From: Flavobacteriaceae bacterium UBA5544
GTDB taxonomy: Bacteria > Bacteroidota > Bacteroidia > Flavobacteriales > Flavobacteriaceae
DNA length: 64,000 nt
NCBI GenBank assembly: GCA_002426755.1
Contig: DINI01000028.1
Span: forward strand, 173,433 to 237,432
Reading direction: 5' to 3'
Below are positions 12,161 through 64,000 of the stretch, in pieces. Every line of letters starts with the position of its first letter. Position 1 is the first letter of the stretch. The notes beneath the pieces were generated by a model. It was not told the origin of the DNA. It saw only the letters and a program-made list of their open reading frames with translations, and did not search any database. The position numbers and the translations under genes were made by a program.

Positions 12161-12241
12161 AATCTATAGTGATTTTTTAGCCCTGATTGAAGCGATATCC
12201 TTTTGCTTTTTTGCAAAAGATAAAGCGGAAAGCAGGAATAG

Positions 12242-13303
12242 CTACTTATACGTTTTATTGAACAGCCAAAAATCTGCCAGGACCAACGCTGCCATAGCTT
12301 CTACAATCGGTACAGCTCTTGGCACCACACAAGGGTCATGGCGACCTTTGCCTTGCATTTCTACGATTTGACCCTGATTATCCAAGGTGTTTTGTTTTTG
12401 AATGATGGTCGCAACGGGTTTAAAGGCAACCCTGAAATAAATATCCATACCATTGCTAATGCCACCTTGAATGCCTCCGGATAGATTGGTTTTGGTGGTT
12501 CCGTCGGCGTTGAACTGGTCATTGTGTTCACTACCTTTCATTTTGGCTCCACAGAAACCACTTCCATATTCAAAACCTTTGACCGCGTTGATGGAGAGCA
12601 TTGCTTTGCCCAATTCTGCGTGAAGTTTATCAAAAACGGGTTCGCCCAGTCCGATCGGCACATTTTGAATTACACAAGTCACCGTTCCTCCTATGGTATC
12701 ACCTTCTTTTCTTATCGCTTTTATTTTTTCAATCATTTGATTCGCAATTGATTCGTCTGGGCAACGTACATCATTACTTTCAATTTTGGAGAAGTCTAAA
12801 TCTTGATAGGGTTTTTCTAAAAACAAATCTCCTACAGAAGATGTGTAGGCATAAATTTTAACATCTTTCAACACTTGTTTTGCAATCGCACCAGCCACAA
12901 CTCTACAGGCCGTTTCTCTTGCTGAACTGCGTCCACCTCCTCTATAATCTCGAATGCCATATTTTTTGTCGTAGGTATAATCAGCGTGACTTGGTCTATA
13001 GACATCTTTAATATGCGAATAGTCTTTTGATTTTTGATTGGTGTTTTTAATTGTAAAACCAATTGGGGTTCCTGTAGTTTGCCCTTCAAAAATTCCTGAT
13101 AAAAATTCGACAGTGTCAGGTTCTTTTCGTTGTGTCACAATTTCAGATTGTCCGGGTTTTCGTCGATTCAATTCGGATTGGATGGCTTCCATATCCAAAA
13201 CAATACCTGATGGACAGCCATCTAAAACACCGCCAATTGCCGGACCATGTGATTCGCCAAATGTAGTCAGTTTAAATAAAGTTCCAAAGGAGTTTCCAGC
13301 CAT
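12242..13303 (-). CDS. aroC: Chorismate synthase
   Basis: [32 protein letters not shown] signatures. Confidence 0.98.
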
Positions 13304-49155: not shown

Positions 49156-51614
49156 ATTTGGGTTGACCTTAAAACCTCATTTTTGATGCGCTTGATGCGA
49201 CTGTCTAAATCTTCACTTGTCAAAGATTGTCGCAAGCTATCAACTTTTATTGGAAAACTCAAAGGTGTGAACGATTTTGCATGTTTTATAATGATTTTAC
49301 TGTGTGAAATACGCTCGAAAGCCGCTTTCAATCGTACTTCTTCCAACTGCTGATTAAAGACTTCAGTATAAGCCTGTCTCAACAATAAGTTCTGTGGTTC
49401 ATAGTCTTCGAGAACTCGAAATATCAATCCTGAAGAGGACTGTAAACTTTTATTGTTCTTCCGATTGCCAGGTTGTGATTGTACGACCAATCCTGAAATG
49501 ACGGCAATATCCCGGAATTTACGGGATGCCATTTCAGAGGCGTTGATACTTCCGATAACGTCATCCATCAAATTTTCTTTGGAGAGCAATTGCTCAACAT
49601 TGGATTCATCGATAGGAATTTCTTGGTCACATAACAATTCAAATCCGTAATCGTTCATTGCAATGGTAAAGGTTAAAGGTTTAATTTGACTTAATCGAAA
49701 TGCTATCAAAGCTGCCATCACTTCATGCACCAATCGACCTTCAAATGGATACATAAAGAGATGAAAGCCATCTTTCGTTTCAATCAATTCAACTAAAAAT
49801 TCATCCAATCTTGGAATATGGGAATGTTTTTCCTGCTGTGAAATCAAGGGATGCAAAAACTTCAATTCTTTTTCAGACGTCTTTGGCTCTAAGGATTCTG
49901 CTAATTTGATTCTTAGATATTGACTCAAATAAGACGACAACGGCAAACGCCCACCCAACCAACTAGGAGCTCTTGCGGATTTGCTCTTACTACGTTTCAC
50001 AAACACGGTCATATCTTTGATATTGACAATTTCCAACACACGACCTGCCAGAATAAAATGGTCCCCAATCTTCATTTTGGAAATAAAGTATTCTTCCACC
50101 ATCCCGACGTAGCCTCCGGAAAAGAACTTGACTTTCAACATGGCATCGCTCACAATGGCACCGATATTCATCCGATGTAGCATACTAATGCGACGACTTT
50201 TGACTTTATAAAGTCCATCGTCATCCTTAATGACTTTGTGGAATTCTTCATATGCATTCAAGGTATTGCCGCCTTGCGTAATGAATTGGATCGCCCAATG
50301 CCAATCGTCCTTGGTCATAAATTGGAAAGCGTGCGTGCGAAGAATCATTTCATATAATTTTTTGCTGTCAAATCCTTCGCCAACAGCCAACGAGACCATA
50401 AACTGAATCATTACATCAAAGGTCATGACCATTGGTTCACGAGCTTCGATGCGTTTTTCCTTGACGGCTTGTTTGAGTGCGGCGGCTTCAATTAATTCCA
50501 AGGAATGCGTAGGTATAAAATAGATTTTTGATACTTCATAAGGCGAATGACCACTACGACCTGCACGCTGCATAAACCTTGCAATTCCTTTTGCTGAACC
50601 AATTTGGATCACACAATCCACTGGTTTAAAATCGACACCCAAATCTAAAGACGAGGTACACACAACCGCTTTCAGTAACCCATCCGATATGGAATCTTCA
50701 ATCCAATTACGAAGTGTGAAATCAATTGACCCATGATGGATGGCGAGTTGTCCAGCTAAATCCGGGGCTTCATTCAGAATCATTTGATACCACATCTCCG
50801 ATTGATTTCGGGTATTTGTAAATATCAATGTCGTTTGATTGGCATAAATGATTGGAATGATTTTCGACACCATTTTTGTTCCCATATGTCCTGCCCAAGG
50901 CAGCACTTCAATGTCATCGGGAAGTACGGTAACGATTTCTATCTTTTTTTTCTCTTTGGCGACAATCATTTTGGTCTTGAATCCGTCATAGGGAATCAAC
51001 ACATTTTGGGCTTCTTCCAAATTGCCAATGGTCGCTGTAATGCCCCAAATTTTTAAATCTTTGGTCAAAGAGAGCAACCGAGTTATGGCCAATTCCGTCA
51101 GTACACCGCGTTTGGAGCCCAACAATTCGTGCCATTCATCGACTGCCACGCATTTTAGATGTTTAAAGAATTTGGAGTTGTTTTTTTGGGAAAACAAGAT
51201 GTGAACGGTTTCAGGTGTGGTTAATAACACATCAGGCATTAAGCGTTCTTGTCGTCGTCTATCTTTTTGGGAGGTGTCACCATTCCGGACTTCAATGGTC
51301 CAATCCAAACCGATTTCTTCTACGGCAGCGGTCATGGCTTTTGCCAAATCTTTCGCTAACGAACGCAGCGGACTTATCCACAATAATTTCAAACCTTTTT
51401 TATGCGAATCAGGATTATTGAGATAATCGATGACCACCGCAAGAAATACAGAAAATGTTTTCCCAAATCCAGTTGGCGCTACCACCACACCTGAATAGTT
51501 ATTGGCATAACTTTCCCAGGTCTGCAACTGGAAGTCAAAAGGTGTGTTGCCTTTCTCTGCCATCCAATTGGCAATGATACCATAACCATCGGTGTCTTTA
51601 AATGCTTTTTTCAA
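49152..51614 (-). CDS. Ligase-associated DEXH-box helicase (Lhr-core)
   Basis: APTGFGKT, DEWHE, HHGS, QRAGRSGH, PFEGRLVHE. Confidence 0.93.
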   Translation of the reverse strand: MKKAFKDTDGYGIIANWMAEKGNTPFDFQLQTWESYANNYSGVVVAPTGFGKTFSVFLAVVIDYLNNPDSHKKGLKLLWISPLRSLAKDLAKAMTAAVEEIGLDWTIEVRNGDTSQKDRRRQERLMPDVLLTTPETVHILFSQKNNSKFFKHLKCVAVDEWHELLGSKRGVLTELAITRLLSLTKDLKIWGITATIGNLEEAQNVLIPYDGFKTKMIVAKEKKKIEIVTVLPDDIEVLPWAGHMGTKMVSKIIPIIYANQTTLIFTNTRNQSEMWYQMILNEAPDLAGQLAIHHGSIDFTLRNWIEDSISDGLLKAVVCTSSLDLGVDFKPVDCVIQIGSAKGIARFMQRAGRSGHSPYEVSKIYFIPTHSLELIEAAALKQAVKEKRIEAREPMVMTFDVMIQFMVSLAVGEGFDSKKLYEMILRTHAFQFMTKDDWHWAIQFITQGGNTLNAYEEFHKVIKDDDGLYKVKSRRISMLHRMNIGAIVSDAMLKVKFFSGGYVGMVEEYFISKMKIGDHFILAGRVLEIVNIKDMTVFVKRSKSKSARAPSWLGGRLPLSSYLSQYLRIKLAESLEPKTSEKELKFLHPLISQQEKHSHIPRLDEFLVELIETKDGFHLFMYPFEGRLVHEVMAALIAFRLSQIKPLTFTIAMNDYGFELLCDQEIPIDESNVEQLLSKENLMDDVIGSINASEMASRKFRDIAVISGLVVQSQPGNRKNNKSLQSSSGLIFRVLEDYEPQNLLLRQAYTEVFNQQLEEVRLKAAFERISHSKIIIKHAKSFTPLSFPIKVDSLRQSLTSEDLDSRIKRIKNEVLRSTQI

Positions 51615-53203
51615 ACGGAATTTGTGATTAGTTTTTTTACGTCTTCAATATCGTCAATTTCGCTGACAGGTTTGTCACGTCTCCATCTTAAAATTCTTGG
51701 GAATCGCAATGCCACTCCAGATTTATGACGATTGCTAAAAGCGATGCCTTCAAAGGCGATTTCAAACACCAATTCAGGCTTTACAGTGCGTACTGGGCCG
51801 AATTTTTCAATGGCGTTCTTGTTCACAAAACGGGATATTTCTGTGATTTCTTTATCGGTCAATCCTGAATAGGCTTTTGCTACTGTTACCAAGCCATCAT
51901 CTTTTTTGACTGCAAAGGTATAATCCGTATATTTTGAACTTCGGCGTCCACTTCCTTTTTGGGCGTATATCATGACAGCGTCAATGGTTAAGGGGTCCAC
52001 TTTCCATTTCCACCAATCACCTTTTTTGCGCCCTGTATGATAGGGTGAATGTTTATGTTTCAGCATCAAACCTTCGCTGTTGAAGTCTCTTGCACTGTTG
52101 CGATAGGTGTTTAAGTCTTCCCATTTATTGAAAGGCAGTATTTCAGACAGAAGCGTATCGTTCGTTTTGTCTTTATGAGTGAATAAAGTCTCTAGCAATT
52201 GACGTCGATAGGAAAGCGGTTTCTCACGGACATCCGTACCATTCCATTCCAACAAATCATAGACGTAAAAGCCTACGGGAATATCTTCCAACATTTTCTT
52301 ACTGACGTTCTTTCGATTCAAACGTTTTTGTAAATCATTAAACAATAGAACAGCGTTGTCTTTCAGTGCCAAAATCTCCCCGTCAATCACAAAATCATCG
52401 TCAAAGACTTCCATGGCGGCCACCAATTCTGGAAATTGACTCGTCACTAACTCCTCGCCTCTTGACCAAATGAATATTTCATCATTCCGCTTCACGATTT
52501 GCCCTCGTATGCCATCCCATTTGTATTCCACTTGCCAATCGGCTGGGTCGCCCAATTCTGGTAATTCCTTTTCTAACGCATAGGCCAGACAAAATGGATA
52601 CGGTTTTGAATTGTCATAATTGATATGTTCACCTTGAAGTAATTCCTGAAAATCCATTGTATTGATATCCCAGTTACCGATGATGCTGTGCATTAGCTGA
52701 TTGGCATCAATCCCAGAATATTTCGCGAGTGCATTGACCAATGTTTTTTTAGACACTCCAATCCTAAAACTACCACCGATCAATTTATTGAATATCAACC
52801 GTTCTTGCATTTGCAATCCTGACCAGGCGTTCAGGACGTATTCTTTTTTGGCTTCCTCTGATTTTGGTCGTAAAGCAATCAACTCCTTCATCCAGTCGCT
52901 TAAGGTTTTTTCGATGTGATGCGTAGGGTCTGGCAGCATCAAGGCAATGGTTTCACCCAAATCACCCACACTGCTATAACTCTCCAGAAACAACCATTCA
53001 GGATAGCCTGTAATCTCCATACACCAAGCTCTTAAAAGGGAGGTCTTCACCGGTCGTGGTGGACGTTTCCCTGTGAAAATACTTATGAGCCACAGTTTGT
53101 CTTTATCTGGAGCTGTGTTGAGATAATCCACGAGCGCACTGATTTTGGAATTGGTCTTATTCGTGATTTCCAAGGCACTGATAAGGTCTGAAAAGTGCTT
53201 CAT
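51611..53203 (-). CDS. ATP-dependent DNA ligase
   Basis: EYKWDGIR adenylation motif, DGEI, EGLMLK, WWKWK, LRFPRI. Confidence 0.95.
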   Translation of the reverse strand: MKHFSDLISALEITNKTNSKISALVDYLNTAPDKDKLWLISIFTGKRPPRPVKTSLLRAWCMEITGYPEWLFLESYSSVGDLGETIALMLPDPTHHIEKTLSDWMKELIALRPKSEEAKKEYVLNAWSGLQMQERLIFNKLIGGSFRIGVSKKTLVNALAKYSGIDANQLMHSIIGNWDINTMDFQELLQGEHINYDNSKPYPFCLAYALEKELPELGDPADWQVEYKWDGIRGQIVKRNDEIFIWSRGEELVTSQFPELVAAMEVFDDDFVIDGEILALKDNAVLLFNDLQKRLNRKNVSKKMLEDIPVGFYVYDLLEWNGTDVREKPLSYRRQLLETLFTHKDKTNDTLLSEILPFNKWEDLNTYRNSARDFNSEGLMLKHKHSPYHTGRKKGDWWKWKVDPLTIDAVMIYAQKGSGRRSSKYTDYTFAVKKDDGLVTVAKAYSGLTDKEITEISRFVNKNAIEKFGPVRTVKPELVFEIAFEGIAFSNRHKSGVALRFPRILRWRRDKPVSEIDDIEDVKKLITNSV

Positions 53204-54237
53204 GCGGTGGTGGTTTTTTCAGTGACTAATTCTTTATCATCCTCATCGCTGCCGTATTCGGTTTTGACCTCTGCGGAAGGAATGCCAATTTCATTAAGGT
53301 ATTTTGAAAACGTCGACTGACTACCATGGGTTACATACACTTTTTCAGCGCCTGTGGCTTTTACGGCGGACAATAATCCGTTCCAATCGGCGTGGTCGCT
53401 GACTGCAAAACCAGCATCTACGGCTTTCCATCGGCGATTCCCGCGTATTTGCATCCACCCGGAGCAAATTGCCGTGGCCGCATTTGGTAGTTTCTTCAGA
53501 AGTTTGGAGCCCAATAAGGCTGGTGGCATAATGACTATCTTGTTTTGTAGGTCTTCCTTTTTGAAATCATAATTCAGCAATTGTGTCTTTGGCAATACAA
53601 TTCCGGAACTTTCAATGGCATTGTTGAGATTGTGTATGGCGCTATGCACGTACATCTCATTCACACCTTCCATCAACTTCATGATGCGTTGTGCTTTTCC
53701 CAAGGAATAGCCAAGAAAGACACTCGTGCGATTGTGGGATTTGTTGAGTGCCACCCAATCGTGCATTTGTTGTTGCAGCTCTTCTTCTGGCAACCAATTG
53801 TAAATTGGCAAGCCAAAGGTGCTTTCAGTGATGAATTCATGGCATTTTACAGGTTCGTAAGGAACCGTTAAATGGTCATTCTTTACCTTGTAATCACCAG
53901 TAAAGACGACCACAAAACCTTTGTACTCCAAACGTATTTGTGCCGAGCCAATCACATGGCCCGCGGGATAAAAACTTACTTGCACGCCATTGACCATCTT
54001 TGCAACATCATATCCCATATGCTCGATGCTGATATCCGCACCAATGCGATGTTTTAGAATTGGCACCGAATCGGTATGGCAGAGATAATGCTTCATTCCC
54101 CAACGCGCATGGTCGGCATGTCCGTGGGAAATGATGGCATAGTCCACCGGCAACCATGGATCCAAATAGAATTTTCCAGGGATGCAGTAGATCCCTTTTT
54201 TTGTGAATTTTATAAGTTTCAAATGTGATTGGGTCAA
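53200..54237 (-). CDS. Ligase-associated DNA damage response exonuclease (MBL/beta-CASP)
   Basis: HGHADH, PAGHVIGSAQ, TGDYK, ESTFG, SDHADW. Confidence 0.92.
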   Translation of the reverse strand: MTQSHLKLIKFTKKGIYCIPGKFYLDPWLPVDYAIISHGHADHARWGMKHYLCHTDSVPILKHRIGADISIEHMGYDVAKMVNGVQVSFYPAGHVIGSAQIRLEYKGFVVVFTGDYKVKNDHLTVPYEPVKCHEFITESTFGLPIYNWLPEEELQQQMHDWVALNKSHNRTSVFLGYSLGKAQRIMKLMEGVNEMYVHSAIHNLNNAIESSGIVLPKTQLLNYDFKKEDLQNKIVIMPPALLGSKLLKKLPNAATAICSGWMQIRGNRRWKAVDAGFAVSDHADWNGLLSAVKATGAEKVYVTHGSQSTFSKYLNEIGIPSAEVKTEYGSDEDDKELVTEKTTTA

Positions 54238-54284
54238 TGGTGAAACATTAGGACTTTAGCACGGGATTCTTCTACCCAATATAC

Positions 54285-54313
54285 AGAAAAACCCGAACCT
54301 AAATTCGGGTTTT
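54285..54313 (-). terminator. Intrinsic terminator
   Basis: AAACCCGAA/TTCGGGTTT stem. Confidence 0.75.
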
Positions 54314-54319
54314 CTATAC

Positions 54320-54820
54320 TTAAGGCTTTAGTTTACCAAAATCCATCGTGTCTGGTTCGTTGCCTGTGATGGCGCCTACACCCATTTTTACCAAGGTTAC
54401 CAGTTTATTAGATTTCGGGTCCCAATAATAGGCCTCGGTAGGATGGACCGAAATTGCTGTGATATTTGGGTCCTGTTTTCCTTCGAACCATGCATCATCG
54501 GACTTGCCATAGAGTTCATCAATAATGGTTTGGTCTGTTGTGATCTTCGCCTTTCCGTATACATTCATAAACTGCATATCCCCTTTGTTGGCATATACCA
54601 AATGTAAATTAGCATCCTTTTCGATATTCTGGTTGTGTGTGCTATTTTTATTGCTCAAGAACCAGATATTCCCCTGCTCGTCCACTTTTTTGGTACTCAT
54701 GGGAATCATGTGCAGAGGTGTCTGTTTTAAATTGGTGGTCATCATTGTAAAATCAATGTTTTCTGCCAATTCCTTTACCTTCTTTTTAGCGTCTTCGTTG
54801 TATAAATTTTCTTTGCTCAT
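54320..54820 (-). CDS. General stress protein (pyridoxamine 5'-phosphate oxidase-like)
   Basis: Start MSKENL preferred; PMSTKKVDEQGNIWF, WFEGKQDPN, YYWD. Confidence 0.85.
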   Translation of the reverse strand: MSKENLYNEDAKKKVKELAENIDFTMMTTNLKQTPLHMIPMSTKKVDEQGNIWFLSNKNSTHNQNIEKDANLHLVYANKGDMQFMNVYGKAKITTDQTIIDELYGKSDDAWFEGKQDPNITAISVHPTEAYYWDPKSNKLVTLVKMGVGAITGNEPDTMDFGKLKP

Positions 54821-55002
54821 AATGTTTATGTTTTGAGTAAAATTATTAAACATACCGATAGGAATATGCTCCAATTCCTTAAAAGGTTAACTCAAAACCG
54901 AGAACTATCGTTATTTATATTTTTATTTAGATTAAGATTTAATCATAATGAGTCAAGAGAAGGCATCTTGCATCGCTAGCTTTGTAATTAAAACAATACC
55001 TT

Positions 55003-55557
55003 ATGGATACCAACAGATTATCAAAAAAAGTAGAAGCCATTCTCAATTCGCAAGCCACTAAAGAAGCCGAAGCCGCACAGATATATCTATCTTACGGCTG
55101 TTGGGCCGATGCACAGGGCTTTGGAGGCGTTGCCAATTTTTTTATGAGGCATGCAGGTGAAGAACGCAACCATATGATGAAAGTGATTCGATACATTTTA
55201 GATCGTGGTGGGGAAGTTAAAGTGACCGCCATTAAAGCACCGCCCAAGAACCCAAAAAACTTACAGGAGTGTTTTGAAAAGACCTTTCAGCATGAGGTAG
55301 ATAACTCGAATGCCATTTATGAGATTGTCAATCTTGCCCATGCCGAGAAAGACTGGGCCACTTATAACTTTGCGCAATGGTTCGTGAAAGAGCAAATTGA
55401 AGAAGAGAAAGTGGTGATGGAATTACTCGACAAATTGAAGATTGCGGGTGGACCAAAAGCCTCCGATGAATCGTTATTTAATTTAGACAAGTATTTGGCC
55501 AATGCACCAGACCATGCCGAATTGCCAAGAGAAGCGTCTGAAGCGAATCCGGAGTAG
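55003..55557 (+). CDS. Non-heme ferritin
   Basis: EAEAAQIY, EERNHM, HEVDNS, WFVKEQIEEE ferroxidase ligands; promoter TAGCTTTG upstream. Confidence 0.9.
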   Translation: MDTNRLSKKVEAILNSQATKEAEAAQIYLSYGCWADAQGFGGVANFFMRHAGEERNHMMKVIRYILDRGGEVKVTAIKAPPKNPKNLQECFEKTFQHEVDNSNAIYEIVNLAHAEKDWATYNFAQWFVKEQIEEEKVVMELLDKLKIAGGPKASDESLFNLDKYLANAPDHAELPREASEANPE

Positions 55558-55580
55558 TTAGGAACTTATAACTTATGAAG

Positions 55581-55605
55581 AGCACCTGTAACCGGGTGCT
55601 TTTTT
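55581..55605 (+). terminator. Intrinsic terminator after ferritin
   Basis: AGCACCTG/CGGGTGCT followed by T run. Confidence 0.8.
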
Positions 55606-55682
55606 ATTGCCCTTTATCGACGAGCTTTGGTTTTGATTTTTATGGTACTTTTATGACCATTATTTAAACAAGCCAATTGCCT

Positions 55683-55841
55683 ATGCCAAAAAAAGGGAGC
55701 GCCAAGAACACCAAGAACAAGGCCCTGCACAGTAAACTGATGGCGCAGAAAAAGAACAAGAAACAACAGGAGGCACAACAACGGAAGGACAAACTGAAGC
55801 TTATTGTAAAGAAGGCCAAGGAGTCGAAACAGCAACCGTAA
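55683..55841 (+). CDS. 52-aa Lys-rich small protein absent from the ORF track (MPKKGSAKNTKNKALHSKLMAQKKNKKQQEAQQRKDKLKLIVKKAKESKQQP)
   Basis: Hand-translated: ATG 55683, TAA 55839-55841; purine-rich coding-like composition; helical basic sequence. Confidence 0.7.
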   Translation: MPKKGSAKNTKNKALHSKLMAQKKNKKQQEAQQRKDKLKLIVKKAKESKQQP

Positions 55842-55909
55842 GACCCGTTGGGTGATGCTCGCCACATTGTGGGTGTTGTGATAGAGGACTAGGGTTGGGG
55901 TGCCGTTGA

Positions 55910-56041
55910 CCTTAAGTGCACCTTAGTACTACCTTAATAGCACCTTAAGTGCACCTTACTACTACCTTACTATGACCTTACTAGCACTTTAGGTTTCCCT
56001 TACTTTCCCTTTAGGTTACCGTTACGGAGACCTTAAGAAGC
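55910..56041. repeat. Phased tandem array: 12 units of exactly 11 bp, consensus CCTTA-N5-A/C
   Basis: ccttaagtgca ccttagtacta ccttaatagca ccttaagtgca ccttactacta ccttactatga ccttactagca ctttaggtttc ccttactttcc ctttaggttac cgttacggaga ccttaagaagc. Confidence 0.9.
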
Positions 56042-56350
56042 CTGGGTTGGTGATTTGATTTTTTTTAGACCGTCATCACCGTCGTTCATCACTAATTGGG
56101 TGTGATTTTTTAGGCTTATTTCTTCATTTAAAGGCTTGTATTTTAATTTTTTATCACTTTTTTGCATTTTTTTGGGTAGTCATTTTCTTATATTTTTAGC
56201 AAAAGCAATTAAAGTGGTGTTCAATTATTTTGCATTAAATTCAATGAAAATCGTCATTTTCTACATATTCTTCAATAATTGATACTTATATTGACTTTGA
56301 CCCCCGTAAAAAATCTTAAAAAAATATATTGTCAATTAAATTTTATTTTA

Positions 56351-56571
56351 TATGTTTGGTCTCACAACTGCAGTAGGTTCCATTTTTTACTTGTGTGAAC
56401 TTATTGTTTTTGAGACGGTTGGCCAACCGTCATACTTCTCCTAGAATTTTTATTTCATTACTGATTTTTTAACGGAACAAGACCCCAACGTCTATTCCCA
56501 TTATTTAACCTGATCTGGTCTGCGCATTTTTGGATGCCATGGCGCAGCTGGATCCTAAAATTTATATTATT
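56351..56571 (+). promoter_or_regulatory. Promoter (-7 TATGTTTG) and ~210-nt structured 5' leader
   Basis: Consensus TAnnTTTG 56351-56358; stems GTCTCA/TGAGAC, GACGGTTG-gc-CAACCGTC, GATCTGG-t-CTGCGC/GCGCAG-CTGGATC. Confidence 0.6.
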
Positions 56572-57372
56572 ATGGCTAAAAACAATTCTTTTATCAAGTT
56601 AGATGGGACCCTTGATGGGTTGACCTTCTATAGAGCGAACGGCGAGAACTTCGTGAAGACTCAAAGCCGTATTACCAAAAAACGTTTGATGACCGAAGAC
56701 GCTTTTGAGCGTACCCGTGAGAACATGCGTGAATTTGGAGGAGCCGCAAAGGCCGGTAAGGGCTTTAGAGATGCCTTTGCCGGTATTGGCAAACTTATGA
56801 GTGATACCTATATGGGAGCTCGCAACAACGGGATCATGAAACAAATTTTGAACCGTGGTGTTGGCGTGCGTGGTGAACGTGAGATTAATGTGGAGGGCTA
56901 CGGCATTATGCTGCAAGGCTTTGAGTTTAATATCAAAGTCCCATTCGGCAGTATTTTTTATGCCCCTAATCAGGCACCAACCATTGGTGTGAGCCGTGAT
57001 GGCATACGATGGACGATTGCCGATTTTAATACGGGATCGTATGTGAACAGCCCTGTAGGCGCTACCCACTTTAAGTTGGTGCTTGCCGGAGGATTTGTGA
57101 GCAACTACGAGTACCAGGTGATGATGGATGGCTACGAACCTGTTGATGCCGCTGTGAACGGCGTGGGCAGTGTGACGTACAGTGATGCGATTCCCATTGG
57201 TGGAATGGTAGGTGCCTCAACCATCTTGGATGTTGACCTTACCAGTGTCGGGACGGTTCCTGTGACTTCAGTGCTGTTTGGTGCTGTGGGGATTCTATTT
57301 TACCAAGAAGTGAATGCAAATTTATATTTGCTTGCTCAAAACAACGCGATGAAGGTTGCCGTTGTTGGCTAA
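56572..57372 (+). CDS. Uncharacterised Bacteroidota protein (N-terminal KLDGTLDGLTFY motif, RTRENMREFG helix, beta-rich C-domain; possibly DUF6266-related)
   Basis: ATG 56572 with AT-rich initiation region; resembles widespread MAKxxGxIKLxGTxGDxxFY proteins ending GIxFYQEVNG. Confidence 0.75.
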   Translation: MAKNNSFIKLDGTLDGLTFYRANGENFVKTQSRITKKRLMTEDAFERTRENMREFGGAAKAGKGFRDAFAGIGKLMSDTYMGARNNGIMKQILNRGVGVRGEREINVEGYGIMLQGFEFNIKVPFGSIFYAPNQAPTIGVSRDGIRWTIADFNTGSYVNSPVGATHFKLVLAGGFVSNYEYQVMMDGYEPVDAAVNGVGSVTYSDAIPIGGMVGASTILDVDLTSVGTVPVTSVLFGAVGILFYQEVNANLYLLAQNNAMKVAVVG

Positions 57373-57375
57373 ACG

Positions 57376-57404
57376 CCTCCCCTAACCCCTTCAAAGAAGG
57401 GAAC
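57376..57404. repeat. REP-like palindrome (CCTCCCCTAACCCCTTC-AAA-GAAGGG)
   Basis: Resembles the Bacteroidota CCCCTxxCCCCTCCAAAGGAGGGGA dispersed repeat (from memory). Confidence 0.5.
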
Positions 57405-57503
57405 TCTATTATTTAACTAATACCGTTGATGCTTATGAAACATACGTAAAATAATTGGCCAAATATGTCCCATTTGAGAAGTGTGGGACTATTAAACGAG
57501 ATG

Positions 57504-57544
57504 AAACCATCTTACATTTTAGGAGAGTGTAGGATGGTTTTTTT
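57504..57544 (+). terminator. Intrinsic terminator closing the 56.5-kb module
   Basis: AAACCATCTTACAT / GTGTAGGATGGTTT followed by T run. Confidence 0.8.
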
Positions 57545-57651
57545 ATGTTTTGGAGTTTGGGGCCTCTTGCGGAACGGCCTTGCTAAAATATTTTTGGTGC
57601 TTTGTGAAACCAATTGAAAAATTTAGTAAATATGCATTGGTCTAATCCTAA

Positions 57652-58422
57652 TTGCGTATGGTTAAGTACGTTATCACCAATTCCATGAAACGCCATGAGC
57701 GTGCCAATCTGTGTTTGAAAGTTTTTAATGATATGGTTGACTGCCATAAATTGTACTATTTGTCCAAACCTTTGGGTAAAATCATTGAGAGCAAACTTAA
57801 AAGCCAAAACAAATTTAGGCCCAGTAAAGAGCCGATTTTTGCCATCACCTCTTCAACCTATAGAGGGCTTCCATTTTATATTTTCCTCGATAGGACGCAA
57901 ACGGTTCAAGTGGTTTTTAATACCTCGCCGATCGATGCTTCTTATGTGGAGTTTATAAAGATTCTTAATTTGCCCAATAACAAGACGATGGTGTTCACCC
58001 AGCACGCATTGGACCGCTATAATGAGCGTGTGCATGGGCGTAAGTATGACAATTATAAGGATATCATGAAACGGTTTATGGTGAACAACCCGATGGTCAA
58101 TTCTAACATTGTGCATAACGGGCATAAAATCACCTCGAGGGTTGCAGAAGGATTTTTAAGCGGGACCAGGGACACCACCCATCACATGATGATCATGAAT
58201 ACTTTTTTTGACAAGCTCGATGAGGAGGACAATAAATCGCAGCATTATAGCAGATCCTATTTTGATTCTTTGTCGGCCCTATCCCCTGACCTGCGGGATT
58301 TTTTTAAGAATTTAGAATATGAAAAAGCCAAAGGGAACATTACCCATGAGGAAATGATCGTACAACTTCAGCTACGTTATCTCCAACTCATTGAGGAGGG
58401 GATGAAGAAAGGATTGTTATAA
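57652..58422 (+). CDS. Hypothetical protein, possible RNase-toxin-like domain
   Basis: 256 aa; FTQHALDRYNERV motif. Confidence 0.55.
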   Translation: MRMVKYVITNSMKRHERANLCLKVFNDMVDCHKLYYLSKPLGKIIESKLKSQNKFRPSKEPIFAITSSTYRGLPFYIFLDRTQTVQVVFNTSPIDASYVEFIKILNLPNNKTMVFTQHALDRYNERVHGRKYDNYKDIMKRFMVNNPMVNSNIVHNGHKITSRVAEGFLSGTRDTTHHMMIMNTFFDKLDEEDNKSQHYSRSYFDSLSALSPDLRDFFKNLEYEKAKGNITHEEMIVQLQLRYLQLIEEGMKKGLL

Positions 58423-58476
58423 CTGCAAAGTCATAAACCCCCGATTAAGAGACTTTAGGGCCACTGTTTCTTTCTA

Positions 58477-58659
58477 TCAGTATTGCCACCAGGCTTTGAT
58501 AAATTCATCTTCCTTTAAGGGCGTTGGCACCAGATTGAAGCCTTTGCGCTGTTCCCAAACCGCTTTTGCTTCACGAATAAACCCTTGCAGGGTCAATACT
58601 TGTACCATATAGGTACCGTTGTCGGTCGGGAGGATTTTGTCTAGGTTGTGATAAGGCAT
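58477..58659 (-). CDS. 60-aa hypothetical protein, phage-like
   Basis: LP.DNGTYMVQV...IKAWWQY resembles small phage DUF551-like peptides. Confidence 0.5.
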   Translation of the reverse strand: MPYHNLDKILPTDNGTYMVQVLTLQGFIREAKAVWEQRKGFNLVPTPLKEDEFIKAWWQY

Positions 58660-58777
58660 TGGTATTTAAGTTTAGTTTAGGTATTAAAAGTAGCTCGTAA
58701 TTGTTAGACGGATTAACTGAAATGGAAAAATTGTGTGCTTGAATCGGGCCTTAAAAATGGTTTAAAGCTATCGGTAG

Positions 58778-59068
58778 CTATGGTGCTGGTGCCAATACTT
58801 CGCGCATCAACTCTTCCGGGCTCTGTTTTTGGGTGAGGTCTCGCAGCTTGTGTTTTAGTTTGAAGAGTTCGCCGTTTTTATTGGCAAGGCTTTTGCCCTC
58901 GCAGGGCAGTTTTTCGAGGGTGTGCATGCAGGCTTCTACGTAGAAGATGTTCATGAGCAGGAAGTGGGCCTTGCTATTGAGGTGTGGTACCCCATTGGCT
59001 TTGACCAACTGGCTGTAGTAGGATGTGAATTTCATGATTTTTGTGTTTGATATTACAAAAATACTCAT
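58778..59068 (-). CDS. Small hypothetical protein (ATG 59035 likely)
   Basis: Helical ORF MKFTSYYSQLVKANGVPHLN... Confidence 0.55.
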   Translation of the reverse strand: MSIFVISNTKIMKFTSYYSQLVKANGVPHLNSKAHFLLMNIFYVEACMHTLEKLPCEGKSLANKNGELFKLKHKLRDLTQKQSPEELMREVLAPAP

Positions 59069-59133
59069 AGTTGTAGCTGGGTGTTGCTACATTTTGTAGA
59101 ATTTGGGAGGGGTTTTTGGGTGGTTTAGTTATG

Positions 59134-59772
59134 CTATGACTGTTCAGTTATATACATGTGATTTGAAGGATTTGGAATAGGATTTCCTTTTATTTGTGAT
59201 GTAATCTTCTCAACCCATTCTTTTTGTTTTTTGTTATTCGGTGGAAGAGGATGATAATAGGCAAATTCCGTTTTCGTTTTTTTGATTCCAAAGGTATTTT
59301 CTATGCCTATCTTGTCTAAAGCTTTCTTTGCTAATTCATTTAATTTTTTATTGACGCCCCATGCAAGGATGATTGGGATTTGTCTAATAAATAGATTGTC
59401 AAACTCTTCATTTCTTCGGGAATCAAATATTGAATGCGGAATATTATGAGCTATAAACTCTGGAATCTTTTTGTAGAATATTTTACATTTTGGCTCTTTC
59501 AAATCCGACAAATTAAAAACACGAGCATAATTAAATCCACATTCGTTCATAACCAACATGATCTGGTTTTGAGTTGGATCTGGTTTTGTAACTGTTTCGG
59601 AACCACTGTAATCATTTTTATCAATTGGTTCTGAACTGCCAGGATTCATCATGATGACCATTAAATCTGGAGTTTCTATATCAATATTTTTCCTCTTAAT
59701 GTTTAAGTACTTTCTAAACTTATGATTATCGACTTGATAGAATAGCCCTGTTATTATGAAGTTCTCTTTCAT
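59134..59772 (-). CDS. DUF1643-family protein
   Basis: VIMMNPGSS, PDPT, VFNLSD, IILAWG, YHPL motifs. Confidence 0.75.
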   Translation of the reverse strand: MKENFIITGLFYQVDNHKFRKYLNIKRKNIDIETPDLMVIMMNPGSSEPIDKNDYSGSETVTKPDPTQNQIMLVMNECGFNYARVFNLSDLKEPKCKIFYKKIPEFIAHNIPHSIFDSRRNEEFDNLFIRQIPIILAWGVNKKLNELAKKALDKIGIENTFGIKKTKTEFAYYHPLPPNNKKQKEWVEKITSQIKGNPIPNPSNHMYITEQS

Positions 59773-59827
59773 CTGGAATTTTTGAGAGCAGTTTAATCAA
59801 AAAGACTTGTGCCATTGTTGCCAGTAG

Positions 59828-60247
59828 TTATTTATTCACTTTTCTTCCATAAACCGATATTTTAATCGGAAAAATTTGAAGCTCAATTCCTTCTCCAAGG
59901 CTAAATGAAAATGTTTTAGTTTTCTTTAGTATGCCTTTTGAAGTATATGAATTTCCAGTCAAATTATTATACGCTTGTACACCATTGGAATGAAAGGCGT
60001 TACCAGTCAAGTTGTTGTAAGCTTGAACTCCGTTGGAATGAAATGCACTTCCTGTCAGATTGTTATAAGCCTGAACCCCATTAGAATGAAAGGCACTACC
60101 AGTCAAATTGTTATAGGCTTGGACCCCATTAGAATGGAAAGCACCACCAGTTAAATTGTTGTAAGCTTGAACTCCGTTTGGATGAAAAGCACTACCAGTT
60201 AAATCATTCCATTTATATACTCCATTTGGGTGTTTTGAACTAGCCAT
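59828..60247 (-). CDS. 139-aa protein with 16-aa tandem repeats (NNLTGSAFHSNGVQAY x5 plus 2 partial)
   Basis: 48-bp period; repeats differ mostly at synonymous positions. Confidence 0.85.
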   Translation of the reverse strand: MASSKHPNGVYKWNDLTGSAFHPNGVQAYNNLTGGAFHSNGVQAYNNLTGSAFHSNGVQAYNNLTGSAFHSNGVQAYNNLTGNAFHSNGVQAYNNLTGNSYTSKGILKKTKTFSFSLGEGIELQIFPIKISVYGRKVNK

Positions 60248-60262
60248 ATTCTATAATTGAAT

Positions 60263-60787
60263 TTAATTATTATGTAAAAACCATTCATAAAGTAATGGTT
60301 TCATTGATTTTTCTTCTTTAGTTTCTTGTTCGTAATTTAAGACAAAATCTCTCGGAATTTCAATTCCATAATATGTATGTGGAAAACTATCGTTTTCCTG
60401 GTTAAAAGGGTCTTCAGCATCCTCAATTCTAGCTAGGTCAATTATGTTTCCATCTACAGTATTAAAACTATGTGTAATAATCGGATAAGGGAATGTATTG
60501 CGAGCTACAAAACCTGTATAGTATTTAAAATTACAATCTGCAATTGTAGAAGCTTTTGCCGAATAGTGACATTGATAATGAATATGTTCATATCCAAGGT
60601 CATTAATTCCATTTAACATTTCATTACTTGGAACTACTTCATTGTATGATTCTATTGTATTAATTTCTTGTAAATTATCTCTTATCCATTGATTAAAAAT
60701 ATCCTTTTCAAGTCCATAGATTTCATTGTAAAAGATTCCGCCTTCGTCAAGGCATAATTCGTAAAAATCTACTTCGTTCAAATTCAT
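60263..60787 (-). CDS. 174-aa hypothetical protein with a putative Cys-His-Asp triad (transglutaminase/papain-like)
   Basis: QCHYSA (C73), YYTGF, THSFN (H106), GNIID (D117). Confidence 0.55.
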   Translation of the reverse strand: MNLNEVDFYELCLDEGGIFYNEIYGLEKDIFNQWIRDNLQEINTIESYNEVVPSNEMLNGINDLGYEHIHYQCHYSAKASTIADCNFKYYTGFVARNTFPYPIITHSFNTVDGNIIDLARIEDAEDPFNQENDSFPHTYYGIEIPRDFVLNYEQETKEEKSMKPLLYEWFLHNN

Positions 60788-60829
60788 TTATTTTCGGTTT
60801 TTTGACAGGTTATGCTGTTTTTTTTTAAT

Positions 60830-60969
60830 TACTGGCAACGTTTTGTGTATGGTTAGTTGCGTGGTTAAGCAACTAATTTAGTATACAAAAACTTGCCAGA
60901 GAAAATTCCGAAGGAATTTTCCAGATAAGCACTTGCCAAAGCAATTAATTATACACGGTGTTAGCAACA
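60830..60969 (-). other. attC-like imperfect palindrome (Flavo-1-type element)
   Basis: Outer arms AAC..GTGTAT-GGTTAGTTGC / GCAATTAATT-ATACAC..GTT; inner hairpin GAAAATTCC/GGAATTTTC; lies between a stop codon and the next start. Confidence 0.75.
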
Positions 60970-61822
60970 GTACTTATTTGATTTTTGAATTAATGTCATT
61001 CAATTTTTTTGCGAATTCAAGTTTTCTTAATTCTTTATTTCGTTTGTCTACAGCTTCATCTAATGAGAAGAAGATAATAGCTTTTACAATCGGTAAATAT
61101 TCTTGACATTCATTTTCTTCGAGCTCGTGCACTCCTTTACTTAAGGTGGAATATATATGAGAATTATCATTAAAATAATCAGGTAAAAATTCTTTTACAT
61201 AATTCAATTTATCTTCCATTCTCAATTTCCTGAATTCTTCTTCAGAAATTTTTTCAGCTATGTCTGATTCGTTAAAGTTCTTTAATATTATTCCTTCGAA
61301 TATCCTTCTGTAATACAAAAATGAAGCAATTGCGTAGCCATATGATTCTAACTGGGAAGCCTTTGCCAACTCTTTTAATTGAATATTATCAAGTACTTTC
61401 TTGTATTTATTAAAGTTTTCAATTACAGTATCGTATTTTGAAGGATACTCCGAAATTTTGACGAGTTGACTATCATCTAAATAGAAACCAAAAAGTATTT
61501 GGTGCTTTGGATTTGCACTACATCGAAAAGTTTTAAAAAGACTTGGTTTATTTCTGATTGCCTGTTGTCCATAATGAGAATTTCTAACACTTGATGTATC
61601 ATATATTCCGCTATCAGGCGCAAAAATTCTTTTCGCTTCACATTCTGTGCAGTAATGCTCAATTCTATCTTTAAAGCTCGATATTAGATAATTGAGGTCG
61701 GTTTCCGACCAAATTCCATTTTCATCTTCAACTTCTACTTTATTGTTCCATTTCGTATAAAGTGGTGAATCAACAATTATTTGCTTTATATCCATAAATT
61801 TGAGTTTGTATTGTTGCTAACA
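60959..61822 (-). mobile_element. Integron-like gene cassette 1 (one gene)
   Basis: Perfect 11-bp inverted pair TGTTAGCAACA (60959-60969) / TGTTGCTAACA (61812-61822) bracketing the 273-aa gene. Confidence 0.7.
60974..61795 (-). CDS. 273-aa hypothetical protein, Zn-ribbon plus HEPN-like domain
   Basis: CTEC...C..H; helical C-half with YRRIFE and LSKGVHEL. Confidence 0.55.
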   Translation of the reverse strand: MDIKQIIVDSPLYTKWNNKVEVEDENGIWSETDLNYLISSFKDRIEHYCTECEAKRIFAPDSGIYDTSSVRNSHYGQQAIRNKPSLFKTFRCSANPKHQILFGFYLDDSQLVKISEYPSKYDTVIENFNKYKKVLDNIQLKELAKASQLESYGYAIASFLYYRRIFEGIILKNFNESDIAEKISEEEFRKLRMEDKLNYVKEFLPDYFNDNSHIYSTLSKGVHELEENECQEYLPIVKAIIFFSLDEAVDKRNKELRKLEFAKKLNDINSKIK

Positions 61823-61957
61823 TCTGGATAAACGCACAGCTGTGTTTATTTCGATTATAAATTTTTAAATTGATATGTTTATTCGGCATAATCTTTAGAT
61901 AAACAAACCTTTTATTACATAGTATAGCAATTACGCTAAAATAAAGGAGATATCAAA

Positions 61958-61973
61958 TACGTAGTTCTACGTA
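61958..61973. promoter_or_regulatory. Perfect palindrome TACGTAG-tt-CTACGTA (operator-like)
   Basis: Directly visible, in the spacer upstream of the first cassette. Confidence 0.5.
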
Positions 61974-61994
61974 ATTGTTAATTAAAATTATTTA

Positions 61995-64000
61995 CTAGGA
62001 ATTTTTTACAATATCAATCTCCTCTTCCGTCAACCCATATAACTCATACACCATTGCGTCAATCTCTTTATCGGTTTGGTCTATTTGGGATTTGAGGGCT
62101 AGGGCTTTTTGTTGTTCGGTGGTGAAGTAATCTTCCCACTCTGCTTCTTCGGATAGAGAGAGTTTTATTTTCTTTTTTGCTAGTTCTTTGATGAACTCGG
62201 CATAGCTCAACTCATACCAACTTTCTAACTTTTTAGGTAACTTATCCAAGCCTTTAAATTTGCGTTGGAGGGTGCGTTGGAATTTGTTGTTTGTATTGAT
62301 AAATGAACTATATGATGATTGAATATCATCAACATGTAACTCTAATAATTTAATATTGTTAATTTCCTCAATGTTTTTAGAAATTGGAACAGTTAAGACT
62401 TTATCTCTTCTAAAATCGAAGTACCCTCCTTGCAATGAAGTGCAAATATTTTTCAGATAAAAGAATATAAGTTTTGAATTTAAAATTGCAATCAACGCTT
62501 TTGAATCAGAAGCAATAAAATAATTATTATTTGTTAATAAAAGTGAGCCCTCATTGTCCAAATAGAAACCACATTCATTTGAAATACTTCTCCATATTAT
62601 TTTAGGTTTTTGAATTTTGTCATAATAATCACAAGGTCTTAAATTCCACCAATTCTTTCCTTTATCACCTCTCTTAATTAAGTCCTTTTCAAAATTTGAT
62701 AACCAACTAAAAATACTAGGATATTTACTTTTTACATTAATGTCGTATTCAGTTAATATTATATATTTTCCACTATTTTCGTGTCTATATCTATATATGT
62801 CTTTTCCTGTTGCAACACTTTTAATTAATTCTTTTGATTTTATATCCTCATTCTCTAATATATCTTTCACACTATCATCTATAATGAAAGCATCATTTTT
62901 GCCAGTTTTAATTCCTAGAAAAACTTTCTTATTTACGTAGTCATTTAAGGACACTGACTTATGAAATAATTTTTTAAAAACCTTCTCACTGTTTTTATCT
63001 ATAAAATTCCATACATCGTTATTTAATGAGCTTTTTAAAACTTCATAAGCCTTTAAATTCAATAATCCGATAGGGTCTATTGTGAAATCTCTTTTATTAA
63101 TTTCCGAATAAATGAAATATTCTTTATTAGTCGATTTGTTTTTATTTAATACATAAATTATTGGATAAGTTGTGGCATCATCAAAAACAGGGTAATCATC
63201 AAAATCAAAAAGTAGTTCTAAATTGGTTTTTTCTTTTATGACTTTTCTAATTTGTCTGCCATAGGAAGCTTTTAAAAACTTATTTGGAAGAATAAATGAA
63301 AACGAACCTTTTTCATTCATTAAGTTAATACCTTTTTCAATAAAGTATGTATATAAATCGGCTACACTATTATAGCATTCATAGTTCTTTTCTAAATATG
63401 GCTTAATCTCCTTAAATAATTCCTGCCTAACATAAGGCGGATTCCCAATCACCACATCAAAACCCCGTTTAGTTTCAGCAGATTGCTTCGTGCCTCGCAA
63501 TGACGTTGTGATGGTGTTGGGTGATGGATTGAAGATTTGAGAGAACTCTTTCTCCCAATTAAATGCCTTATCGCCAGCGACCTTTTTATCATCAATCAAA
63601 CTATTGCCACATTTTATGTTGCTGTTTAAATCGTTGAGCTTACGTCGGGGCTGTGCGGTGCGTAACCAAAGGGAGAGTTTTGCAATCTCTACCGATTCTT
63701 CATTGAGGTCCACCCCATAGATATTGTTTTCTAAAATGGTGTTCTCGATATCACTCAATACCAAGCCACCACCAAGGACATTGGCTTTGAGTTCGTCGAT
63801 ATAACGATGTTCCTTAATCAGGAAATCCAAGGCTTGGTTTAGAAATGCGCCAGAGCCACAGGCAGGGTCGCAGATGGTGAGTTGCAATAGCCAATTGCGA
63901 TAGGTGTCCAGCAGGTCTACCAATTCCTGTAGTTTCTTTTTTGGTCGGTTGGCACGGCTTTTAAAGTATTCCTCTTCCTGAAAACCGAGTTCGACTTTCT
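61995..64000 (-). CDS. Type IIG (Eco57I/TaqI-like) restriction-modification enzyme, 5'-partial; frame stays open to the window end
   Basis: DPACGSGAF motif I, GVDLNEESVEIAKLSLW, GFDVVIGNPPY motif IV, TaqI-C-like KIIWRSIS. Confidence 0.9.
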   Translation of the reverse strand, partial: KVELGFQEEEYFKSRANRPKKKLQELVDLLDTYRNWLLQLTICDPACGSGAFLNQALDFLIKEHRYIDELKANVLGGGLVLSDIENTILENNIYGVDLNEESVEIAKLSLWLRTAQPRRKLNDLNSNIKCGNSLIDDKKVAGDKAFNWEKEFSQIFNPSPNTITTSLRGTKQSAETKRGFDVVIGNPPYVRQELFKEIKPYLEKNYECYNSVADLYTYFIEKGINLMNEKGSFSFILPNKFLKASYGRQIRKVIKEKTNLELLFDFDDYPVFDDATTYPIIYVLNKNKSTNKEYFIYSEINKRDFTIDPIGLLNLKAYEVLKSSLNNDVWNFIDKNSEKVFKKLFHKSVSLNDYVNKKVFLGIKTGKNDAFIIDDSVKDILENEDIKSKELIKSVATGKDIYRYRHENSGKYIILTEYDINVKSKYPSIFSWLSNFEKDLIKRGDKGKNWWNLRPCDYYDKIQKPKIIWRSISNECGFYLDNEGSLLLTNNNYFIASDSKALIAILNSKLIFFYLKNICTSLQGGYFDFRRDKVLTVPISKNIEEINNIKLLELHVDDIQSSYSSFINTNNKFQRTLQRKFKGLDKLPKKLESWYELSYAEFIKELAKKKIKLSLSEEAEWEDYFTTEQQKALALKSQIDQTDKEIDAMVYELYGLTEEEIDIVKNS
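63480..63504. repeat. REP-like element AGATTGCTTCGTGCCTCGCAATGAC inside the RM coding frame
   Basis: Translates as SLRGTKQS in an extra loop before GFDVVIGNPPY; resembles the dispersed GTCATTGCGAG..GAAGCAATCT repeat. Confidence 0.7.

Follow-up and report, generated by a model that had tools for sequence, protein, structure and literature searches.

Integrons are the textbook case of single-strand, structure-specific site-specific recombination, an insertion in the integrase being regarded as the defining adaptation. Here we analyze a block of genes that very probably represents a small satellite array of an integron-like gene-capture system, located at positions 59773-61994 of a 64,000-nucleotide stretch of the genome of Flavobacteriaceae bacterium UBA5544 (the window, C32:173433-237432; contigs of this genome are labelled C1, C4, C26 and so on, and coordinates without a contig label are those of the window). 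The nearest integron kin of such arrays are the sedentary chromosomal integrons with homogeneous long attC sites, such as the Vibrio cholerae repeats, the 'inverted integrase' group and the clusters of attC sites lacking integrases (CALINs) (PMC4889954; PMC9024848). The host phylum, Bacteroidota, is not a classical lineage of the integron integrase IntI, as the initial annotation of this locus remarked: IntegronFinder surveys found it nearly integron-free, with IntegronFinder 2.0 reporting for Bacteroidetes In0 elements only and one complete integron in Salinibacter (PMC9024848). The paper on a Polaribacter phage CALIN (PMC9892861) deals with other sites.

The closest published relative, going by its published description and by recombinase homologs near proteins of Bacteroidales metagenome-assembled genomes (MAGs), appears to be the recombinase-associated acquired interbacterial defense (rAID-1) system of gut Bacteroidales, which was found in 226 of 423 genomes and is defined by a XerD-like recombinase at least 44% identical to B. 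fragilis BF9343_RS08045 together with immunity-gene cargo (Ross et al. 2019, 10.1101/471110). The rAID-1 papers give no crossover site, fold or mechanism, stating that the way in which rAID arises is still being actively investigated (10.1101/471110; PMC12247911). In both rAID-1 and the flavobacterial arrays, a XerD-like recombinase gene precedes a row of short, co-oriented, low-GC genes, which can number in the tens and have conserved intergenic motifs, and both belong to Bacteroidota; the flavobacterial arrays differ in using a 137-nt repeat family and in containing a single NTF2-fold immunity protein among 79 open reading frames (ORFs). The window cassettes, at 26-35% GC, fall within the gene-level description of rAID-1 (two or more co-directional genes of at most 41% GC with repetitive intergenic motifs), which discriminates little because the genome average is 36%. 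The initial annotation considered the system under-recognized, and this holds in part: our literature search found no published account of flavobacterial arrays, but rAID-1 arrays had been published in 2019 as 'reminiscent of integrons'.

Cassette ends and the repeat family

The window array consists of a head module and two cassettes, all on the minus strand. Cassette 1 (60840-61821) comprises GTTAGCAACA (61821->61812), an ORF for a 273-aa protein (61795->60974), TGTTGCTAAC (60969->60960) and an attC-like repeat body (60959->60840). Cassette 2 (59817-60839) comprises GTTGCCAGTA (60839->60830), ORFs for a 174-aa protein (60787->60263) and a 139-aa protein (60247->59828), and TACTGGCAAC (59826->59817). 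The genes are AT-rich (26-35% GC across the cassette region compared with 41-47% in 58000-59050) and co-oriented, and an exact Bacteroidota -7 box, TAnnTTTG, is absent from the coding strand within 59700-62050, in agreement with the initial description of them as apparently promoterless. On the plus strand, the four 10-mers at the cassette ends are GTTGCCAGTA (59817-59826), TACTGGCAAC (60830-60839), GTTAGCAACA (60960-60969) and TGTTGCTAAC (61812-61821). The two cassettes with four matching ends that were originally reported are borne out as far as the boxes are concerned, the ends of each cassette being exact 10-nt reverse complements, but only one complete repeat is present in the window. The pairing extends, at 93%, to 14 nt in cassette 2 (59817-59830 and 60826-60839) and to 15 nt in cassette 1 (60959-60973 and 61808-61822). 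Such length alone is unremarkable because 93 inverted pairs of similar length occur within 4 kb; what matters is position. The two inner boxes form the termini of a single repeat element, and the two outer boxes lie in the only other intergenic gaps, each flush with an ORF; as estimated from base composition, chance would supply an exact 10-mer partner within about 1.2 kb about 1e-3 and 5e-4 times. Other cassettes (C11:44761 and C32:141579) also bear the R box GTTGCCAGTA/TACTGGCAAC. Past the outer boxes, at 59817 and 61812, neither nhmmer nor the covariance model detected a recognizable repeat copy, so that these boxes are orphan half-sites, and the window, with its single complete site, falls short of the two or more attC sites without a nearby integrase that define a CALIN. 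By contrast, C6:17-9610, with 10 repeats, has a CALIN layout.

The element between the inner boxes belongs to a large family. The 186-nt gap at 60788-60973 was found to hold a member of this family by a whole-genome search (BLAST and three nhmmer rounds), which yielded 74 copies of an imperfect palindrome of about 137 nt. The window copy (60830-60969) is matched by nhmmer with E 4e-37 and by the covariance model R1 with 130.6 bits on the plus strand compared with 16.8 on the minus strand. The repeats form co-oriented arrays, with the copies 0.45-3 kb apart, on C1, C6, C10, C11, C12, C14, C20, C23, C29, C30, C31, C32 and C34, many of which lie at contig ends. Read in the orientation of the model, each copy has the form N7-AAC|G...T|GTT-N7.

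For the 36 cassettes bounded by two repeat copies, we set the 7 bases that follow GTT against the 7 bases that precede the next AAC. Beyond the invariant GTT/AAC, the two ends of the same cassette are complementary at 7 of 7 positions in 15 of the 36 and at 6 of 7 in another 7, against a background over all R'/R'' pairs of 1.1% and 2.2%, respectively. The two ends of a single repeat copy (n = 42) show a background-like distribution. Because own ends match and same-repeat ends do not exceed background, the matched pair is borne by the cassette rather than by the repeat. The genome-wide check of end complementarity per cassette that had been suggested from the window thus came out in favor of cassettes, and the pairing of own ends is the expected trace of a circle in which one folded site was opened beside GTT, as this pattern of sequences is most readily understood. 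The same arrangement is seen in integrons, where crossover beside GTT leaves both halves of the cassette's own R box on the cassette.

Duplicated units locate the cassette boundaries independently. The segments C1:62365-63191 and C20:177935-177107 are 97% identical, with the homology running from the AAC|G of one repeat to the next AAC|G, and in the pair C6:140-664 and C1:61856-62378 (83%), the common part is GTT...AAC only. The ORFs are opposite to the model strand in 48 of the 53 inter-repeat units. Given the duplicated-unit boundaries and the ORF orientation, a cassette consists of GTT-N7, the ORF(s), N7'-AAC and its own repeat body, and by the same assignment of the repeat to the cassette with the upstream ORF, the repeat body at 60840-60959 belongs to the cassette of the 273-aa protein. 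There are one or two promoterless ORFs per cassette, the body is about 120 nt long, and N7 and N7' are complementary within a cassette and not across the junction. Together, the end-pair test and the duplicated units uphold the original proposal of an integron-like array with cassette-specific core sites split at AAC|GTT.

As in integron cassettes, the end of each unit is an imperfect palindrome that has AAC...GTT cores, a long stem and an unpaired spacer. The complete site in the window (60830-60969, plus strand) is composed of the R'' box TACTGGCAAC, the spacer, an L-type stem of 16 bp that contains G:T pairs, a variable center and the R' box GTTAGCAACA, and it folds better on the bottom strand, that is, antisense to the ORFs. 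In an alignment of 26 copies, the consensus is a 16-bp stem with 7 covarying pairs, in which G:T is conserved at two positions (23 and 25 of the 26 copies) and A:C is almost absent on the model strand. The spacer between the R box and the long stem is asymmetric, about 5 nt on one side and 3 nt on the other, and there is a conserved small central hairpin, GGAAAATCC-N-GGATTTTCC in the consensus and GAAAATTCC-GAA-GGAATTTTC in the window copy, whose DNA fold has z = -6. When folding was computed with DNA parameters, 36 of 40 copies had a model (bottom) strand that was more stable than the complement (mean -2.0 kcal/mol, Wilcoxon p=9e-7), the same preference for the antisense strand as in integrons. 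Rebuilt circle junctions, in which a cassette's own AAC box is joined to its repeat, reached -25.7 kcal/mol compared with -21.2 kcal/mol for the array form, and 23 of 25 were more stable (p=2e-5). These features are in line with the hairpin-based site that the initial annotation proposed. The site has the imperfect palindrome, the R''/R' and L''/L' boxes, the bottom-strand fold and the split own R box of attC, whereas the boxes, N7-AAC/GTT-N7 extended to 10-11 bp, do not follow the RYYYAAC/GTTRRRY consensus, and canonical extrahelical bases were not identified; in place of such defined bases, an asymmetric internal loop and fixed G:T mismatches appear to distinguish the strand.

Recombinases, docking sites and distribution

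No tyrosine recombinase is encoded in the window, as originally noted, nor anywhere on the entire 240-kb contig C32, and the whole genome encodes eight. Two of these, both Xer-like, stand at array heads, at C4:53779-55065 and on C26 (~37226-38422), each at a contig end; separate housekeeping Xer-like genes are found on C16 and C10. Both array recombinases retain the catalytic R..K..HxxR..H..Y residues and match Pfam Phage_int_SAM_4 and Phage_integrase. The IntI model TIGR02249 detects nothing above its cut-off in this 99.4%-complete genome, the C4 and C26 genes being its best matches (192-214 bits compared with the cut-off of 265), in two pieces that skip model positions ~181-239. Their scores with the NCBIfam XerA/"integron integrase" model are 223 and 212 bits (cut-off 220), and they remain below the IntI models. 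Where VchIntIA (2a3v) has 70 residues, the array recombinases have 27, so that the IntI insertion of about 43 residues, the additional domain (alpha-I2 region, between patches II and III) that characterizes the IntI clade, is missing. By both sequence and predicted fold, the nearest solved structures are those of archaeal XerA (4a8e, 5hxy), followed by VchIntIA. The array recombinases resemble the Xer proteins (XerC/D, archaeal XerA at dif) in the catalytic core, for which these are the best sequence and structure matches, and differ from them in an added N-terminal domain and in being tied to cassette arrays instead of a single dif site. The extra domain of about 100 residues has a beta-beta-alpha-beta-beta-alpha-beta fold at residues ~9-78 (pLDDT ~90) and is without counterpart in both Xer and IntI; the whole-chain matches found by Foldseek concern the catalytic core, and none would assign this domain. 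Directly upstream of the C4 recombinase gene, at C4:53293-53583, lies an ORF with short repeats (GNAIYDG heptads).

As in integrons, the tyrosine recombinase heads a one-directional row of promoterless cassettes and is followed by a docking site that ends in GTT; here, unlike in integrons, its gene is co-oriented with the cassettes. The sequence GATATAACnA|GTTGCC is found downstream of both the C4 and C26 genes, and the first cassette begins at the GTT of this site. The C4 gene is the sole one with downstream sequence before the contig end, and the two cassettes that follow have own ends that pair exactly, GTTGCCCAC...GTGGGCAAC and GTTGCCACCA...TGGTGGCAAC. An attI-like site of the form (A)TATATTTG-N-ATATAACnA|GTT follows the recombinase stop codon in C4, in C26, in Polaribacter sp. 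ALD11 and in most of the 45 related loci shown, and its placement suggests that it acts as a recombination site.

The head module of the window array (61822-61994, 173 nt, minus strand), which extends from the stop codon of a type IIG restriction-modification (RM) gene to the first GTT and contains no recombinase gene, is not a repeat copy and ends in a small hairpin with the crossover triplet, GAATAAACACAGCTGTGCGTTTATCCAGAT|GTT. It shares ~45-170 nt, including the hairpin and GTT, with the heads of recombinase-less arrays at C31:68348-68543 and C20:176897-177121, and in another family of the phylum, a homologous recombinase is followed by a similar site, ATAAAC...GTTTAT-N|GTT. We read the module, from these likenesses, as a putative second type of docking site, here without a recombinase gene. 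That it represents another attC family was considered and rejected, because both an R'' box and a long palindrome are missing. The hairpin and GTT occur a second time at C20:178033-178116, within the C20 array, about 100 nt past a repeat, and hence this type of site is not limited to array starts.

The initial annotation had called for a search for a recombinase that co-occurs with the repeats, and this search was successful: recombinase, docking site and repeats are found together in 80 named loci. Homologs with 57-66% identity are abundant in Polaribacter, Tenacibaculum, Aquaticitalea, Tamlana, Hanstruepera and others. The complete genome of Polaribacter sp. ALD11 (CP025119) has the recombinase gene followed by ATATAACCC|GTTGGGCAAC and by 14 members of the repeat family within 10 kb, interspersed with small co-oriented ORFs that have no Pfam match. 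Across the 80 named Flavobacteriaceae loci, there are 162 repeats in 252 kb of downstream sequence, all in a single orientation, and 5 in 545 kb upstream; in 45 loci, the downstream sequence amounts to 1 kb or more, and 44 of these contain the repeat. When 151 genomes that sample 150 Flavobacteriaceae genera were searched, 130 matched the covariance model of the repeat, and 73 of the 151 contained a recombinase match at E<=1e-60; most of the genomes listed as having no repeat match are smaller than about 2.7 Mb, and three exceptions measure 3.4-4.2 Mb. Among 300 genomes sampled from the phylum, full-length homologs with 35-38% identity, N-terminal domain included, were found in several other families, the nearest named relatives of one of these recombinases being Bacteroidales MAG proteins. 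In ten such loci inspected by eye, nine have a GTT docking site, and in five of those nine, the first cassette has an exact own-end pair, for which the chance expectation is about 1e-3 per locus. The architecture is conserved across Flavobacteriaceae and recurs in other Bacteroidota families, with GTT docking and own-end pairing extending to relatives of proteins from the order in which rAID-1 was described. In a comparison with 11 genomes of the same genus, the repeat and parts of the flanking genes are common and the cassettes are not, which fits variable cassette content among what are different species rather than strains.

Mechanism and rival explanations

Under the mechanism that we favor, a cassette would excise as a circle, with its own two boxes pairing; the strand antisense to the ORFs would fold into an attC-like hairpin composed of the R box, the unpaired spacer and a long L stem with G:T mismatches on that strand only; and the recombinase would exchange strands just 5' of GTT, with either the docking site beside its own gene or another repeat as the partner. 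The C4 and C26 recombinases would then serve the window array in trans. The window array itself, with its head module, two cassettes and a lost terminal repeat, is probably a fragment that was seeded there or broken off, and may no longer be fully mobile.

Several observations weigh against this interpretation. The window array could be a fossil, given that its terminal repeat is missing and that there is no recombinase on the 240-kb contig. Genome-wide, 14 of the 36 cassettes have poor own-end matches, which might reflect missed divergent repeats or decay; the poor pairs mostly span long, multi-ORF intervals, in which divergent repeats were probably overlooked, and some show a one-base register shift. 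The array form of the window copy folds best not in the consensus manner but as a 5' hairpin (60830-60900, plus strand; -28.2 kcal/mol), formed by the R'' box CTGGCAA together with an internal TTGCCAG, which belongs to a ACTTGCCA motif duplicated at 60892 and 60933. This alternative was seen in this copy only and is treated as its peculiarity. Because the recombinase lacks the insertion that reads the extrahelical bases, single-strand recognition cannot be taken over from homology; the case for a single-strand mechanism would come from strand asymmetry, covariation and the computed stability of circle junctions, not from the protein. Finally, recombination is here a proposal drawn from sequence patterns, in one genome per species.

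The features of the recombinase bring up a double-strand alternative, in which the same cassette system would use double-stranded sites, as in Xer/dif or lambda-Int, the palindrome being paired binding sites or a terminator with no folded single strand. The affinity of the recombinase to archaeal XerA in sequence and fold and the lack of the IntI insertion speak for it, the N-terminal beta-rich domain may be an arm-type DNA-binding domain, and full-length lambda Int aligns over ~370 columns, a weak hint. Yet, cassette-specific boxes about 120 nt apart would make an unworkable double-strand core, the restriction of non-Watson-Crick stem positions to G:T on one strand, with A:C almost absent there, would be meaningless for duplex DNA, and both the strand stability bias and the gain on circularization point away from such sites, so that we regard this possibility as unlikely. 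Far less credible still is a classical integron remnant (CALIN) with ordinary attC sites, the true IntI having been lost or residing in an unassembled part of the genome. The AAC/GTT core triplets, the cassette layout, the hairpin with its unpaired spacer and the ORF orientation all obey integron rules, and numerous arrays do stop at contig breaks, but the IntI cut-off is unreached in a nearly complete genome where the two best matches are Xer-like genes aligned in two pieces, such genes head the arrays both here and in Polaribacter and are followed by repeats in almost all related loci, the boxes deviate from the integron consensus beyond the triplets, and integron surveys recover almost nothing in Bacteroidetes.

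The multi-copy, intergenic 137-nt palindrome lies just 3' of ORFs, the usual position of a terminator, and could in principle be a miniature palindromic mobile repeat (MITE/REP-like), a structured RNA or a terminator, with the end match a matter of chance or a target-site effect. This explanation is largely refuted and, in our assessment, hardly tenable: the copies are co-oriented in regular arrays and linked to a recombinase on one side only, the homology of duplicated units breaks exactly at AAC|G, the excess of exact own-end pairs over background contradicts chance ends, and with the G:T pairs on the strand antisense to the mRNA, the mRNA would have C-A mismatches. A specific RNA candidate, the Flavo-1 RNA motif (RF01705), was rejected for the repeat: it has 7 genome matches above the cut-off, none at a repeat copy, and none in 50000-64000 at E<=5. 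Other Rfam families gave chance-level matches only over 50-64 kb. A genuine Flavo-1 RNA motif, one of these 7 and unrelated to the cassette repeats, is located at 12175-12243 on the plus strand (68.5 bits, E 9e-15).

Beyond the window, the integron-like reading invites a broader proposition, the chances of which we consider evenly balanced: that Bacteroidota possess their own integron-type machinery, widespread among the families that were sampled, in which a Xer-derived recombinase with an added N-terminal domain and no IntI insertion acts on G:T-marked bottom-strand hairpins; that integron function arose independently of IntI or parted from it very early; that rAID-1 and the flavobacterial arrays are two branches of this machinery; and that recombinase-less arrays behind hairpin-and-GTT heads are seeded and serviced in trans. 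The point of interest is that the full cassette grammar, with own-end R boxes, an attI-like site, strand-biased hairpins and satellite arrays, is combined with a recombinase without the IntI insertion. If true, this would provide a second, independent experimental system for the reading of folded DNA by a tyrosine recombinase, a testable mechanism for the assembly of the rAID-1 immunity arrays of the gut microbiota, and a very large pool of orphan cassettes among marine Flavobacteriaceae, with compact defense genes such as DRT UG5-nitrilase, Uzume and ThsB-like TIR among them. The window itself is modest in this respect, being a small, partly decayed satellite array whose cargo has no recognizable function.

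Cargo and gene neighborhood of the window array

The stockpile of defense and toxin genes that the initial annotation proposed is borne out in part for the genome, where a handful of the 79 array ORFs scanned are defense genes; the three cassette ORFs of the window have no significant Pfam, NCBIfam or PADLOC match. Most of the 79 ORFs are likewise without a match. Those with one include DRT UG5-nitrilase, UzuA (1.2e-90), PDC-S66, a ThsB-like TIR protein, one NTF2-fold immunity protein, transporters and thioredoxin-like proteins. The DRT UG5-nitrilase reverse-transcriptase defense gene (1051 aa; PADLOC E 2.6e-231) forms a single cassette between two repeats at C31:69912-73064 (L143:3159-6311). 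This combination of mostly orphan cargo with some single-gene phage defenses, along with satellite arrays that lack a recombinase, is shared with integrons.

Homologs of the 273-aa protein (ORF at 60974-61795), with 50-83% identity, are encoded in Chryseobacterium, Tenacibaculum and Winogradskyella. Among three genomic contexts viewed, two metagenome contigs have other attC-like repeats with GTT/AAC boxes, and none are evident at the Chryseobacterium locus; these contexts fit horizontal gene movement. The AlphaFold model of the protein (pLDDT 86) has PDB matches all above E 0.09, several of which are HEPN-type helical proteins (2q00, 7ae6, 1jog, AbiA, Csm6'), a weak hint that it might be HEPN-like. 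In cassette 2, the 139-aa protein (ORF at 59828-60247) contains five 16-residue tandem repeats, NGVQAYNNLTGSAFHS, corresponding to a 48-nt period in the DNA, and is preceded by the 174-aa protein (ORF at 60263-60787).

All genes from 59134 to the end of the window are on the minus strand. Past cassette 2, the 44-nt stretch at 59773-59816 (minus strand), between the AAC of this cassette and the start codon of a DUF1643 gene, occupies the place where the repeat of cassette 2 is expected and forms the decayed terminus of the array. It probably represents the beginning of an attC-like repeat that was truncated and fused to the AT-rich DUF1643 gene (59772->59134): by eye, AAC|AATGGCACAAG... resembles AAC|AATGGCTATAAG... 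of other repeat copies, and the repeat model gives no match to this stretch even at E<=100. After the DUF1643 stop codon, at 59040-59093, the minus strand reads AAAATGTAGCAAC|ACCCAGC..., which resembles, again by eye and without a match to the repeat model, an R''-AAC box with the start of a repeat. Given this R''-AAC-like sequence, the DUF1643 gene (59134-59772) may be a third, decayed cassette.

On the other side of the array, the type IIG RM gene (61995 onward, minus strand) encodes Eco57I, N6_Mtase and TaqI_C domains. Its middle portion (62300-63400), the target-recognition part, has 24-29% GC compared with 42-45% at both ends, within a single open frame, and looks like a swapped specificity segment. 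Upstream of the start of this gene (~C32:238721), at C32:238900-239593, fragments that resemble the 3' end of a tRNA (GAAGGATTCGAACCTTCGACC..., three times) and short direct repeats are found at the contig end, which suggests that the RM gene and the cassettes lie in an island next to a tRNA integration site.

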